DNA of 13,373 bases, taken from Promethearchaeota archaeon. GTDB taxonomy: Archaea; Asgardarchaeota; Lokiarchaeia; Sigyniarchaeales; SOKP01. Under the pieces are notes generated by a model. The model had not been told where the DNA came from. It searched no databases and saw nothing but the letters and a program-made list of their open reading frames with translations. The position numbers and the translations under genes are program-made. The stretch covers positions 1 through 13,373 of the forward strand of contig JAFGOA010000015.1 in the NCBI GenBank assembly GCA_016926735.1. The letters are read 5' to 3'. Within the stretch, counting starts at the first letter, position 1. Each line of letters begins with the position of its first letter. Positions 3 to 13,136 of this stretch are shown here, piece by piece.

Positions 3-263
3 ATGAAGAATTGTTTAAATTCAAAAAAAAAAAAAAAGAGATTTTCTACAAAATTAATATTTTTTGCTCCTAAAGAACTAAGCTCTAATTCAATCAAAAA
101 AATAAACAAAATAAAACATATTCATGATAAAACTGAACCTCATAAATCAATAAATAAACACGAACCAGTTTGTTCTATTTTAACTAAAAGCAATAATTTT
201 ACAAAATCTTACCAAAAGGCTATGAAAATAGTAAAAAAAATCAATAATATAATTATTTTCTAG
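3..263 (+). CDS. C-terminal fragment of a probable ATP-grasp domain protein (COG2232-like), truncated by the window edge
   Basis: KLIFFAP...IHDKTEPHKSINKHEPVCSILT...AMKIVKKI resembles the K-I-[LY]-AP...D-P--G--I--GEP-C-[TV] C-terminus of archaeal COG2232 ATP-grasp proteins (recognised from memory). The Met at 3 is probably internal. Its stop overlaps the convergent Roadblock gene by 11 nt. Confidence 0.55.
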   Translation: MKNCLNSKKKKKRFSTKLIFFAPKELSSNSIKKINKIKHIHDKTEPHKSINKHEPVCSILTKSNNFTKSYQKAMKIVKKINNIIIF

Positions 264-1014
264 TTAAATCTTTATCTAAAATAGTTTTAATCTCAGCTAT
301 ATAAGCACCAAGCTTTTTTTCGTCTGATTCAGGTACTGCGACACATAATACTCTTGTTTCATCAAGTTCATGAACGATTATCGAACCATTTTCTCCTCCA
401 ATAATAGAATATTCTAGATCGCTATTTTCTAATATAACACCTGATAATTTATAAAAAGCAGCTAAAAGTGCTGAAAGCATAGGTTCTGCCATTGTAGATT
501 GAACTTTAACAGGTAAACCATCTTTTGTTATAATTGCAGTAACTAAAGCATTTGGAATAGCTCTTTTTAATCCCACAAATACTTCTTCTTTTATAATTTC
601 GGAAGTTTCTACAATTGCAGAAATTTTCAAAGCAAATTCTTTTAATTTTGAGATATATTTATTTACTCCTTCTAATTCTGCTAATTCCCTATTTAAAAAA
701 GCAATTAAAGTAATATTATTTGTGATAATTGAAAGAATAATTCTTAATTTTCCAGTAATTAAATCATATGAAATATCCTGATTAAGGGAATTTTTTAATA
801 ATTTAGAAGAGAGGAAAAGGATACTACTATTTGCTGCTGCTATTTCATGATCTTTCATTTTTATTTGCTTTTTAAAATTACTCGCAATAAATGTTCCTCC
901 ATGTGTTCCAATTGCTATTCCTAATAATGCATGGTATTCTTCTAATTGTTTTTCAATCAGTCCAATAAGATCTTTACTTACTTTTTTTATTTTATCCTCT
1001 AAATTATCACTCAT
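253..1014 (-). CDS. Tandem (double) Roadblock/LC7 domain protein (MglB/LAMTOR-like)
   Basis: Two ~120-aa Roadblock-like units: LLGIAIGTHGGTFIASN...EIAAANSSILFLS and LVTAIITKDGLPVK...MLSALLAAFYKLS...YSIIGGENGSIIVHEL...VLCVAV...KLG. AGGT lies just upstream of the ATG on the minus strand. Confidence 0.85.
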   Translation of the reverse strand: MSDNLEDKIKKVSKDLIGLIEKQLEEYHALLGIAIGTHGGTFIASNFKKQIKMKDHEIAAANSSILFLSSKLLKNSLNQDISYDLITGKLRIILSIITNNITLIAFLNRELAELEGVNKYISKLKEFALKISAIVETSEIIKEEVFVGLKRAIPNALVTAIITKDGLPVKVQSTMAEPMLSALLAAFYKLSGVILENSDLEYSIIGGENGSIIVHELDETRVLCVAVPESDEKKLGAYIAEIKTILDKDLTRK

Positions 1015-3294: not shown

Positions 3295-4014
3295 TTAAAA
3301 AAAAAGACACATATCTTTAATACATTTATCATTTTTAATAGAAAAACTGCATTTTTTATGTTTAAAGGGTAAATCTATTTCAAACTTCTCTTTTAGAAAA
3401 GTAATTGCTTCAGAAATTGATATTTTTACTGATCTTTTACAACAATGTTCAAAATTATCTGCTATTTTTGCTAAAGAACAAGAAGTCACTTCATTTGCTA
3501 AACTTCGAGGTATAGCTTTTGACGGTGTAGCTTCTGTAAAGATACTTATAGCAACTCCAGAACCCATAGCTGCTCCACATGATCCATAGAATCCACACCA
3601 TCCTCCTGGGATTTTAGAACTACGGTTTATAGCTTCTTTAATATCATCATATGTAATCTCTTTATCATTTGGTTTTTTTATTCCATTATTTTTTAAAAAA
3701 GTAAGCAGAATAGCAGAAGTTAAAATATGATGTTCAGGACCATACATCTTGAATTTAGGATGGTTCATAACTATTTCAACCATTTTAAATGGGTTTTTTA
3801 GTTTGGTTGATTCACAAAATTCTTTTATTATTTTTTGTGGTTCTTTAGAGTGACATTCATTACAAATATAATGTCCATTTGGACAGTATATATTTGTATT
3901 GAATTCATTTCTGCATAAATTGCATAAGATATTTTTATAATCATTTTGATTAGTAGAATAGAATAAGTCTAATCCACAAATCTCACATTTATCTTGTTTT
4001 GACATAGGTATCAT
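3295..4014 (-). CDS. DUF5714-family Cys-rich protein (N-terminal metal-binding CxxC motifs plus C-GCAxxG-C-C-like domain)
   Basis: CEIC, CNLC, CPNGHYICNECH, GPEHH, GGWCGFYGSCGAAMGSG, CCKRS and a C-terminal Cys cluster. The start may be the second Met (4005). Confidence 0.8.
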   Translation of the reverse strand: MIPMSKQDKCEICGLDLFYSTNQNDYKNILCNLCRNEFNTNIYCPNGHYICNECHSKEPQKIIKEFCESTKLKNPFKMVEIVMNHPKFKMYGPEHHILTSAILLTFLKNNGIKKPNDKEITYDDIKEAINRSSKIPGGWCGFYGSCGAAMGSGVAISIFTEATPSKAIPRSLANEVTSCSLAKIADNFEHCCKRSVKISISEAITFLKEKFEIDLPFKHKKCSFSIKNDKCIKDMCLFF

Positions 4015-4881: not shown

Positions 4882-5175
4882 TATAATCTTGAAAATTATA
4901 AAGAATAAATAAAATTATCTGTTAATTATAATAAATTAATCTTAATTAGACACCCTTATTTATTTCTTTTTTATTTTAATAATCAATTTCGAGAAAAACA
5001 CATAAAATGAAAAAAGAATTTGATTTATAATTATTATATCTAATAATATTATATTCATATTAATAAAGAAGAAGGTTCCTATTAGGATTAAATAATAAGA
5101 TTTAAATATGAAATTTGATACTAAAATTCAACAATAGTGTATAGATAATATAAAAAAAAATAATAACAAATGTGT

Positions 5176-5182
5176 AGGAGGT
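5176..5182 (+). promoter_or_regulatory. Shine-Dalgarno site AGGAGGT
   Basis: Perfect SD ending 7 nt before the ATG at 5190, in an otherwise G-poor region. Confidence 0.75.
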
Positions 5183-5189
5183 TATTATA

Positions 5190-5354
5190 ATGAAAGATAA
5201 AAAATTATTTGGTCCTGAAGATGATGATGAAGACTGGGATGATGATGATGATTGGGATGATGATGATGACGATTGGAATGAGGAATATGACGAAAATAAC
5301 GACGGAGATTGGGAAGACATAGATAGCGATGATGATTGGGTTGAAGATGATTAG
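5190..5354 (+). CDS. 54-aa Trp-acidic microprotein (absent from the ORF track)
   Basis: MKDKKLFGPEDDDEDWDDDDDWDDDDDDWNEEYDENNDGDWEDIDSDDDWVEDD*. Strong SD and GC/purine enrichment relative to the flanks. Confidence 0.75.
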   Translation: MKDKKLFGPEDDDEDWDDDDDWDDDDDDWNEEYDENNDGDWEDIDSDDDWVEDD

Positions 5355-5501
5355 AAAAAAAAAAATTAAAAAAGTATTATAATATTGGGATCCATTTTTC
5401 CTTAGTGTTATTTAATTTGATTTTTATAACTATTTTTTTATATAATTTATTTAAAAATATCATAAAGGTTTTAATGTAATATTACCTATTTTTTAAGTGT
5501 T

Positions 5502-5514: not shown

Positions 5515-5544
5515 GTTAATCAAAAAATACCGTGACATAAAAAA

Positions 5545-5862
5545 ATTACCGAAGATGAAATTTGTCCATTATGCGGGCTCCCGAAATCATTATGTGTTTG
5601 TACTGATCTAAGCGCTGACGAGCAAGAGATTATAATATCCAATGATAGAAGAAAATGGAAAAAAATTGTAACTCTTATTTCTTTTGGTGGAAATACCGAT
5701 GCAGATCTAAAAGATCTTCTGACGAAAGCTAAGAGAAAAATTGGAGCGGGTGGTACCATAAGAGAAAATAGTATTGAACTTATGGGTGATCACCGATTTA
5801 AAATAAAGAAATTTTTAATTGATATGGGGTATGATGAGGATCGAATAAGAATTCAAGAATAA
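5545..5862 (+). CDS. sui1: Translation initiation factor aIF1 (SUI1/eIF1/YciH family), predicted ATT start; absent from the ORF track
   Basis: (I/M)TEDEICPLCGLPKSLCVCTDLSADEQEIIISNDRRKWKKIVTLISFGGNTDADLKDLLTKAKRKIGAGGTIRENSIELMGDHRFKIKKFLIDMGYDEDRIRIQE*. Shows the archaeal CxxCGLPxxLCxC knuckle, basic RRKWKK loop, GGT and IELxGDHR motifs. In-frame TGA upstream at 5533-5535. Confidence 0.95.
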   Translation: MTEDEICPLCGLPKSLCVCTDLSADEQEIIISNDRRKWKKIVTLISFGGNTDADLKDLLTKAKRKIGAGGTIRENSIELMGDHRFKIKKFLIDMGYDEDRIRIQE

Positions 5863-6610: not shown

Positions 6611-6720
6611 AAATTAAAACTTCTATATTAATTTCCTTAAGAAAGATTTTTATTGTAATTAAGTTTTATAATCAAAAAACAATATAATAAATTACTTAAT
6701 TTTAAATTATTTTGATAATA

Positions 6721-7560
6721 ATGGATGATTCTAAGAATATAGTTGATGATTTAAAGAAAAAAGCTTTTTCAGCAAAAATTAAGAATTATTTTAAAAATCT
6801 AGTAGATTTTTCATCTTATAGTAGAAAAACTATAATCTATATTATAATAATGATTATAATTATAGCTATTTCTGCATATTTATTATATATTTTAGTCTTT
6901 GTGGATAGTCAAATTCTATATAGGATAGTTGTAGAATGGTTTGTTAATCCAATATATAGGCTTGGAATTGGTGGTGTATTTCTATTTATTGGGATTATGG
7001 CTCTTCAAGGTTTGCTTATTCCTCTTCCTTCTGAAGTTGTATTATCTGCAGCAGGAATGATTTGGGGGATATTAGTAGGAGGATTAATGGGAATAATAGG
7101 ATCTATGGCAGCAGGGTTATTGTGTTTTTATCTTACAAGAAAGGGAGGGAGACCATTAGCCGAAAAGTTTGTAGGAAAAAATGCTATTGATATCGCAGAT
7201 AAATTTATTCAAAAATATGGAACAAGTGCGATAATAATTGGAAGAGTACTCCCTGTCATACCTTTTGATCTAATAAGCTACACAGGGGGATTAGTTGATA
7301 TTGACACAAAAAAATACACATTAGGTACTTTTATAGGATCTATACCTCGTGCTTTTTTTTATTCTTGGATTGGAGGTACTTTAATAGATGAGGGTTCAAT
7401 CACTTTACCTATTAATTTTAGCACAATGCCAATTGATCTAATAGATAAACAAGCTAATACATTTAATCTAATTCTCTTAATCATTGCTATTGTTTTTATT
7501 GCAATTTTTCTCACATATTATTTTATTGGTCTATACCTAAAGAGGAAATCTTCAAATTAA
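6721..7560 (+). CDS. DedA/TVP38/TMEM64 (VTT domain) membrane protein
   Basis: LIPLPSEVVLSAAGMIWG, GSMAAGLLCFYLTRKGGRP, GRVLPVIPFDLISYTGG, TFIGSIPR. ATG at 6721 is preferred over TTG at 6712. Confidence 0.9.
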   Translation: MDDSKNIVDDLKKKAFSAKIKNYFKNLVDFSSYSRKTIIYIIIMIIIIAISAYLLYILVFVDSQILYRIVVEWFVNPIYRLGIGGVFLFIGIMALQGLLIPLPSEVVLSAAGMIWGILVGGLMGIIGSMAAGLLCFYLTRKGGRPLAEKFVGKNAIDIADKFIQKYGTSAIIIGRVLPVIPFDLISYTGGLVDIDTKKYTLGTFIGSIPRAFFYSWIGGTLIDEGSITLPINFSTMPIDLIDKQANTFNLILLIIAIVFIAIFLTYYFIGLYLKRKSSN

Positions 7561-12452: not shown

Positions 12453-13136
12453 TTATAATAATTTATCTAATTTGATATCAAATTCAAGATTTTTATCAAG
12501 GAATTTATTTTCTTTTCTAATTTTATATGATAATGTTCTTTTAGCACATTCATAAAAACTTTGATATATATTTTTTTCTTTATTAATTAATGCACAAGTT
12601 TCATATATTTTTGGATTTAAGACATAGGGATCATCTTCAGAACCTATCCATAATTTCTCCTGTTTTAAAATATTAATAAAATCAGCAGTTTTTATAGTAT
12701 TTTCTAAATCTTGTTTATTTAGCATAATTATTAGAGGTATCTCATGAATTAATTTATTTTTTGAAAGACTTTTTAATTCTTTTAAAAATTCTATATTCTC
12801 ATCTAAAAGATGTGATTGAGAATCAACAACAAAAATTATTCCATCTGATCCTTCAAATACTTTTTTCCTAAGTGCTGAGAAGCTTCTTTGACCTGAAACT
12901 GTATATGTCATATAAAAAATTTCCCTAGAGGAGGTTGATTGAAATAGTCCTCTATCAAAATATAGTGTAGAACCACTAGCTCTCTCGATTTTTGTAATTT
13001 CTCCCACAGGAGTAATATATTTTCCATTCTTTTTTGTTAGAGTATATAATGTGTCTAATATAGTTGTTTTACCTGAAGCATACATTCCCCAATAAAGAAT
13101 TTTGATATATGTTTTTCCTGATTTAATTGTAACCAT
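12453..13136 (-). CDS. MglA-like small P-loop GTPase (Ras superfamily)
   Basis: KILYWG and G1 GMYASGKTT, G2 STLYFD (MglA RTLFFD), atypical G3 YTVSGQ (MglA YTVPGQ), DGIIFVVDSQ, G4 NKQD, G5 TCA. Confidence 0.9.
   Translation of the reverse strand: MVTIKSGKTYIKILYWGMYASGKTTILDTLYTLTKKNGKYITPVGEITKIERASGSTLYFDRGLFQSTSSREIFYMTYTVSGQRSFSALRKKVFEGSDGIIFVVDSQSHLLDENIEFLKELKSLSKNKLIHEIPLIIMLNKQDLENTIKTADFINILKQEKLWIGSEDDPYVLNPKIYETCALINKEKNIYQSFYECAKRTLSYKIRKENKFLDKNLEFDIKLDKLL

Follow-up and report, generated by a model that had tools for sequence, protein, structure and literature searches.

Disordered ligands that combine acidic tracts with aromatic residues are a hallmark of eukaryotic regulatory complexes. 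DSS1/Sem1, a small acidic, tryptophan-containing subunit of the eukaryotic proteasome lid and of the BRCA2 and TREX-2 complexes, carries a few conserved aromatic anchors and acts as a DNA mimic, and acidic activation-domain-like peptides, in which acidic residues are combined with W, F or L, fold on binding. Asgard genome annotation systematically overlooks small proteins. Competition between an acidic C-terminal tail and single-stranded DNA for a shared surface is an established mechanism, as in gp2.5 of phage T7 (reference 29 of PMC5009744, as cited in passages of that paper), and the same passages describe a conserved terminal (E/L)DIDDI motif of eIF1A that binds domain 4 of eIF5B. The protein described here, P0001, is encoded in a stretch of 13,373 nucleotides of Promethearchaeota DNA (the window). 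It shares with these systems an acidic and aromatic composition, and is a member of a previously unnamed microprotein family that is so far restricted to one Promethearchaeia (Asgard) family.

The gene for P0001 occupies positions 5190..5354 of the plus strand, including the TAG stop codon at 5352-5354, and encodes 54 residues. Its translation contains 26 Asp and 7 Glu, or 33 acidic residues in all, with a net charge of about -30 and a molecular weight of 6.6 kDa. The N-terminus reads MKDKK-LFGPE, with acidic tracts after it, and five Trp (positions 16, 22, 29, 41, and 50) are each directly preceded by Asp. The G+C content of the window is 24-26%; Asp is encoded by GAT (21) and GAC (5), and Glu by GAA (6) and GAG (1). 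The length, the acidity, the Asp-preceded Trp, and the GGAGGT motif ahead of the start had all been listed in an earlier, sequence-only reading, and were borne out by translation and coordinates. That reading had also called the Trp regular, which does not hold: the intervals are 6, 7, 12, and 9, and the spacing is not conserved, since Trp41 alone is invariant in 18 aligned relatives. P0001 is unique in its own 3.88-Mb genome (G000), where a single ORF passes a filter for any 30-residue window with at least 17 Asp/Glu and at least 2 Trp.

The Shine-Dalgarno (SD)-like GGAGGT lies at 5177..5182 (plus strand), with a spacer of 7 nt to the ATG; the A preceding it, at 5176, had been taken as the start of the feature. 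A lone GGAGGT is weak evidence in G000, because a control word precedes ATG as often: an ATG follows 4-10 nt on at 126 of 900 GGAGGT sites and at 122 of 838 GGTGGA sites. The weight for the gene therefore comes from conservation across relatives. The TATA-like box TTTAAATA at 5101..5108 (plus strand), 89 nt 5' of the ATG, is judged by its sequence to be the probable archaeal TATA element of the gene. A T5 tract at 5395..5399 on the same strand, about 40 nt past the stop codon and present at the homologous place in all three aligned same-genus genomes, is a possible archaeal oligo-T terminator. In these three genomes, a 35-nt block at 5100-5134 is identical and has variable flanks. It consists of the TTTAAATA box and the beginning of the presumed 5' UTR, and its role may go beyond that of a promoter.

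Among 41 related genomes, a protein search returned in-frame homologues in two genera, with an N-D-G-D-W core common to them; in P0001, the core comprises residues 37-41 (codons 5298..5312, plus strand, placed in alignment A4). A degenerate 24-nt pattern for D-[DE]-x-N-D-G-D-W was scanned over public genome contigs and metagenome contigs. None of the 20 matching stretches in genome contigs was confirmed by tblastn, and all 20 were then inspected directly. Seven of them were small acidic ORFs of the same build, from records labelled Promethearchaeota, Promethearchaeia or "uncultured archaeon", and the other 13 lay inside larger non-acidic ORFs of at least 115 aa in bacterial records. Metagenome contigs contributed 27 matching stretches, 6 of them small acidic ORFs.

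A shorter, 15-nt pattern for N-D-G-D-W gave 62 matches in 49 of the 154 genomes of the order, against 7 for a reversed control, and all 62 places were inspected. The sequence-only reading had proposed a pattern search of Asgard intergenic regions for acidic-Trp small ORFs led by an SD motif, and such ORFs were indeed recovered: a small acidic ORF with the core is present in 23 of the 154 genomes, with an SD-like purine motif 5-11 nt 5' of the start in 14 of the 18 members aligned. The 23 genomes belong to 8 genera, all within family f1: g1 (4/4 genomes), g3 (2/7), g6 (4/6), g7 (1/1), g10 (1/1), g12 (1/1), g11 (6/54), and g2 (4/42). One more genome, G064, retains only a 22-aa remnant and stands outside this count, and the pattern found no copy in the 19 genomes of the other three families. 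The figure of 23 is a lower bound, because motif variants such as N-D-G-E-W, seen in one of four independently found relatives, are missed. Protein and profile searches (A2/A3) also miss true copies: G001 and G155 scored none, yet the ORF is present (L020, L092; contig C144 of G001). Profile tallies thus undercount the family, because acid-rich candidates crowd the first look. Two large, unrelated proteins account for most of the other N-D-G-D-W matches. In 14 genomes, N-D-G-D-W-[SN]-D-G-I occurs in a conserved large protein, with partial ORFs of at least 740-850 aa, that explains many of the pattern matches and is unrelated to the microprotein (loci L064, L075, L077-L080, L087, L090, L105, L108, L111, L113, L116, and L117).

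Members of the family are 32-75 aa long, the 32-aa member being encoded at L081. The NDGDW core is invariant in all 18 members of alignment A4, a figure biased by the use of this motif to collect the set; among the four relatives found independently by protein words, three carry NDGDW and one NDGEW. The rest of the signature consists of a short N-terminus with an aromatic residue, G-P, and then Glu or a Lys/Arg cluster, which in P0001 takes the form F-G-P-E (5208..5219, plus strand). G-P is present in 11 of the 18 members of A4; genera g6 and g10 have a basic cluster after it. The acidic tracts are punctuated by W, Y or F, and these aromatics interchange or are lost while acidity is kept. The C-terminus is acidic, with Y, F or W as the last residue in 8 of the 18.

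Comparison of these sequences indicates that the microprotein gene is very probably genuine and under purifying selection. Indels among three same-genus genomes measure 15 and 3 nt only. The genes of G000 and G003 differ by 8 synonymous and 3 non-synonymous changes over 49 codons, and dN/dS values for the five pairs with finite dS are 0.04, 0.15, 0.28, 0.19, and 0.12 (Nei-Gojobori), two further pairs being saturated at synonymous sites. At the aligned start codon, 15 of the 18 members have ATG (12) or GTG (3), with an SD-like motif before each, and 12 of the 18 carry a TTTAAA(T/A)A box 76-94 nt 5' of the start. With the frame kept, dN/dS well below 1, and start codon, SD, and promoter conserved, the earlier claim of selection at the protein level rather than a GAT microsatellite is upheld. 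The same reading had named a lost frame, indels out of step with codons, and unconserved Trp spacing as grounds against itself; the frame is conserved and the indels are multiples of three, but the Trp spacing is not maintained.

The next gene 3' of the microprotein on the same strand encodes the initiation factor aIF1 (5545..5862; Pfam SUI1, E 2.8e-13), as the sequence-only reading had proposed. A TTTTATAA box of its own precedes it by about 30 nt, so the two genes are probably separate transcription units. In g1, the order is DUF5714 and PHP hydrolase genes (both on the opposite strand), the microprotein, and aIF1. In g3, this order is interrupted by an alpha/beta hydrolase gene and a dipeptidase-like gene, with aIF1 about 2 kb away; across the g1 and g3 loci with wide flanks, the distance between the ORF and aIF1 is about 0.2-2 kb. 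The ORF adjoins an alpha/beta hydrolase gene in g7 and g12 (in g12 a PHP gene as well), where the loci are too short to reach aIF1. In g2, g10, and part of g11, the neighbouring genes encode a cyclophilin, a coiled-coil protein, and a CoA-binding protein; in g6, a metallo-beta-lactamase-fold protein is encoded next to it, with a glycoside hydrolase-like gene in some members; and in another g11 subgroup, the neighbour is one conserved ORF of about 360 aa. These names in relatives' loci were read from sequence, the Pfam scan covering the aIF1 domain match. No aIF1 gene was found in the g6, g10, g11, and g2 loci within about 1.2-2.5 kb on each side. The proposed synteny with sui1 is therefore seen only in closely related genera, and since gene order differs between genera, it points to near relatedness and not to a functional pairing that has been conserved.

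Elsewhere in the window, Pfam identified genes for a Roadblock/LC7 protein (253-1014, minus strand), an Arf-family small GTPase (12453-13136, minus), a DUF5714 protein (3295-4014, minus), and a VTT/DedA membrane protein (6712-7560, plus). This gene content is typical of Asgard archaea. The DUF5714 protein also shows weak, sub-threshold zinc-ribbon-like matches near its N-terminus.

The aIF1 gene has an unusual beginning. Between the in-frame TGA at 5533-5535 and the zinc-knuckle cysteines, there is no ATG, GTG or TTG. A survey of aIF1 loci (L118-L164; positions 5533-5862, plus strand, of the window) showed that a canonical start is absent in all 30 loci of family f1, where the codon at the expected N-terminus is a conserved ATT (28) or ATC (2), with GTGA or a GGTTGTGA word 3-12 nt upstream. 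Another 17 loci, from other families or second copies, have TTG, ATA or ATT at the homologous codon, often right after a GAGGTGA-type SD; four of these are ambiguous, with no placeable candidate in two and a possible GTG in two, and none has a clear ATG. According to passages of a review (PMC4705826), aIF1 discriminates against AUU, and eIF1 is described in part of another paper (PMC6237735) as autoregulating its synthesis through a poor start context. Rejection of AUU by aIF1, combined with a conserved ATT start in its own gene, suggests negative autoregulation of aIF1. By analogy with bacterial infC and eukaryotic eIF1, the survey suggests that start-codon-based autoregulation of aIF1 may operate across the class; the passages of the literature that were searched contained no statement on such autoregulation in archaea. 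Second aIF1 copies occur in several genomes (G001 C91, G008 C390, G148 C9, G020, G022, and G145), three of them interrupted by stop codons and possibly pseudogenes.

Weak starts were also seen in the microprotein family. ATT stands at the aligned start, with an intact SD ahead, at L002 (G003; 1501-1503) and L006 (G017; 1492-1494), and the ORF at L028 (2486-2638) is without a canonical start. The microprotein of some species may share the weak-start regime of aIF1.

Searches of family libraries gave the microprotein no name. Pfam contained no family for P0001 at E<=0.01, and none for five of five members at E<=10; NCBIfam and PHROGs likewise yielded no family, the only hits being three single-member matches with a best E of 0.013. 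An exhaustive profile search against 1.84 billion cluster representatives returned 0 matches, and a word-indexed protein search with alignment A3 scored 8000 candidates with 0 at E<=0.01, probably because it was swamped by poly-Asp words. With a g6 member as query, four unnamed predicted proteins (JGI, Logan) from a sister subgroup of P0001 matched at 74-87% identity, and no fused longer form was found (3 candidates, 0 scored). Nothing significant was found in the PDB with two profiles and two single sequences; two chance-level matches, one with a SART3 peptide (E 0.055) and one with CD163 SRCR repeats (E 0.034), were rejected. Candidate C/D-box sRNAs from Rfam (sR18, sR20, and others) were also rejected, the best scoring 20.8 bits against a threshold of 44; such matches arise because Asp codons give repeated GAUGA, and these repeats are a trap for the RNA annotation of poly-Asp genes. 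At the level of titles and abstracts, no description of the family was found in the literature, including that on Asgard microproteins and on acidic disordered small proteins. At that level there was also nothing on Asgard archaea together with DSS1, and "NDGDW" occurred only in an unrelated context.

P0001 is predicted to be intrinsically disordered. AlphaFold2, run on the G000 protein with an 18-row alignment, gave a pLDDT of 61, a pTM of 0.12, and no secondary structure. One helix was predicted in a g6 member, at residues 15-25, over the D-F-W..Y..I segment, with a pLDDT of about 67-70. Co-folding of the microprotein (A4) with aIF1 (A5), run without controls, scored 0.00 against a mark of 0.32, which counts neither for nor against such a pairing.

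We tentatively favor a reading in which the microprotein, a disordered polyanion, serves as a ligand or nucleic-acid mimic and uses its aromatic anchors to dock on a basic surface of a protein. Like other acidic/aromatic disordered ligands, it would fold on binding. Its acidic tracts would imitate the backbone of a nucleic acid and cover a basic surface on a protein that binds nucleic acids or is related to translation, with specificity coming from the NDGDW turn and the aromatic side chains. The effect would be competition with DNA or RNA, or the bridging of partners. The acidic and Trp-rich composition, the interchange of W, Y, and F at constant acidity, and the predicted disorder are consistent with this reading; at least four different gene contexts across genera, and the lack of a sequence relation to any known acidic ligand (0 PF05160 matches, chance-level PDB matches), count against it.

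In g1 the gene immediately precedes aIF1 on its strand, and in g3 it lies within about 2 kb of aIF1. These positions would fit a role as a translation-initiation accessory that supplies an acidic/aromatic tail in trans, like the eIF1A C-terminal tail on eIF5B domain 4 or like other acidic segments of eukaryotic initiation factors; its targets would be aIF5B, aIF1 or aIF2. According to passages of PMC5009744, the eIF1A tail binds a helical subdomain of eIF5B domain 4 that archaeal aIF5B also has, and archaeal aIF1A is without the tail. The aIF1A of G000 (PF01176, E 7e-20), encoded on another contig (C18; L165 1420-1776, minus strand), likewise ends without an acidic tail; its gene apparently starts at TTG after AAGGTG. 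The C-terminal peptide of human eIF1A, DDIGDDDEDIDDI, as given in part of PMC12249807, resembles the W-D-D-I-G-E-D..D-L-D-I-E-D of g3 members. This resemblance is one of low complexity, however, and no eIF1A chain appeared in the four PDB sequence searches at E<=10. Furthermore, the C-termini of members are unconserved and the D-I-D-D-I-type end is absent, and aIF1 is missing from the g6, g10, g11, and g2 loci within the flanks searched. We consider this role unlikely. Its boldest form would make the microprotein a free-standing archaeal counterpart, possibly a precursor, of eukaryotic acidic/aromatic modules, tuning initiation through aIF5B domain 4 or another factor beside an AUU-controlled aIF1; this too we regard as a doubtful proposition.

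A peptide that binds or buffers divalent cations, with poly-Asp tracts and an N-D-G-D turn chelating Ca2+, Mg2+ or a metal, has a similarly slim chance of being correct. N-D-G-D looks like the middle of an Asp-rich calcium loop, and 26 Asp in 54 residues would suit cation binding. The DxDxDG/EF-hand register is not kept, however, loop position 3 being Y, F, L, N or D across members, and Pfam matched no EF-hand or other calcium motif. Cation binding would also leave the conserved Trp and the aromatic punctuation unexplained.

The partners named by the sequence-only reading fare worse. It had suggested a multivalent acidic-Trp ligand of actin/Arp-like or coat-like proteins, modelled on the WASP/WAVE A motif or on the W-acidic motifs bound by delta-COP and kinesin light chain, or alternatively a histone chaperone. 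The composition, with several D/E-W units in a chain predicted to be disordered, agrees with such a ligand, and the window encodes eukaryote-like proteins of trafficking type in its Arf-family GTPase and Roadblock/LC7 protein. Multivalency is not conserved, however: a single Trp is invariant, the L081 protein has only 32 residues, and g6 members have 2 Trp. The microprotein contains no WH2, central-helix element or Pfam domain, no conserved neighbourhood with cytoskeletal or coat genes was seen, and a W-x-x-[LIV] reading of the core fits only 5 of 18 members. We consider these partners highly unlikely.

Least credible, and largely refuted, is the view that 5190..5354 is no protein gene but either an ORF that arose by chance in a GAT-rich simple repeat or a small RNA of C/D-box-like type: period-3, -18, and -21 arrays over 5216-5293 (TRF), weak C/D-box sRNA matches of 15-21 bits over 5217-5270 on the plus strand (Rfam), and open reverse frames lend it some color, but all Rfam matches lie far under their gathering scores of 38-45 bits, and the dN/dS of 0.04-0.28 in the plus frame, the in-frame indels, the conserved start codon, SD, and TATA box, and a non-repetitive N-terminus and NDGDW core kept across 8 genera with different flanks all argue against it. 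No RNA run was listed as containing the sequence. In a comparison with two metatranscriptome contig sets, from the study that also supplied the best DNA match, and two salt-marsh DNA runs, RNA contigs reached only 5223-5273, the GAT-repeat part; these come from other organisms, as their likeness is below 95% and their flanks are unlike, and they do not bear on expression of the gene.

The microprotein belongs to no scanned family library (Pfam, NCBIfam, PHROGs), yet shows clear purifying selection across 8 genera. As a conserved, stand-alone example of a disordered acidic/aromatic protein in the closest archaeal relatives of eukaryotes, it provides a concrete 54-residue bait for partner finding. 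If the partner turns out to be an initiation factor, a chromatin protein or a DNA-repair protein, the family bears on the origin of such eukaryotic modules; if the microprotein is only a lineage-specific polyanion, it adds modestly to the archaeal microproteins on record.

Several described motifs and proteins resemble the microprotein in part. With Gly39 set at position 6 of an EF-hand/DxDxDG loop, position 3 is N in 3 of the 18 members, the remaining 15 having Y, F, L or D there, and the LIR/AIM motif W-x-x-[LIV] is approached by the 5 of 18 members with I or L at +3 of the invariant Trp. Unlike the VCA region of WASP/WAVE, the microprotein is without the WH2 (V) and central (C) helices, and no helix is predicted in the G000 chain. 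Acidic activation-domain-like peptides share its acid-aromatic composition and, in the g6 subgroup, a short predicted amphipathic helix, but the microprotein is without a DNA-binding domain, and to our knowledge no archaeal co-activator target has been described. With the acidic tails of ssDNA-binding proteins and with DNA mimics, it has in common its polyanionic nature, an aromatic residue often at or near the end (8 of 18), and a presumed competition for basic grooves; it differs from them in having no OB-fold domain and no homology. Acidity, disorder, and scattered hydrophobic or aromatic residues also mark the C-terminal tail of eIF1A, and here the genomic neighbour is an initiation factor. 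The local likeness of the microprotein to the D-D-I-G-D-D-D..D-I-D-D-I end does not amount to a significant alignment. That tail is fused to an OB domain while the microprotein is free-standing, and the (E/L)DIDDI end occurs in 0 of the 18 members, whose C-termini differ.

Among small acidic/aromatic disordered ligands, DSS1/Sem1 (PF05160) is the closest in build. The two are alike in size class, extreme acidity, few conserved aromatic anchors, predicted disorder, and an own stand-alone gene; for P0001 these features amount to 54 residues, 33 of them acidic, an invariant W41, and a pLDDT of 61. This is a likeness of kind and not homology. The PF05160 profile gave 0 matches at E<=10 in six frames of the whole genome, no DSS1 chain appeared in the PDB searches, and the NDGDW core and the G-P motif are features of the microprotein that are absent from DSS1. 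As it fails to match the DSS1/Sem1 profile while sharing the build, the microprotein represents a new family within a known kind.
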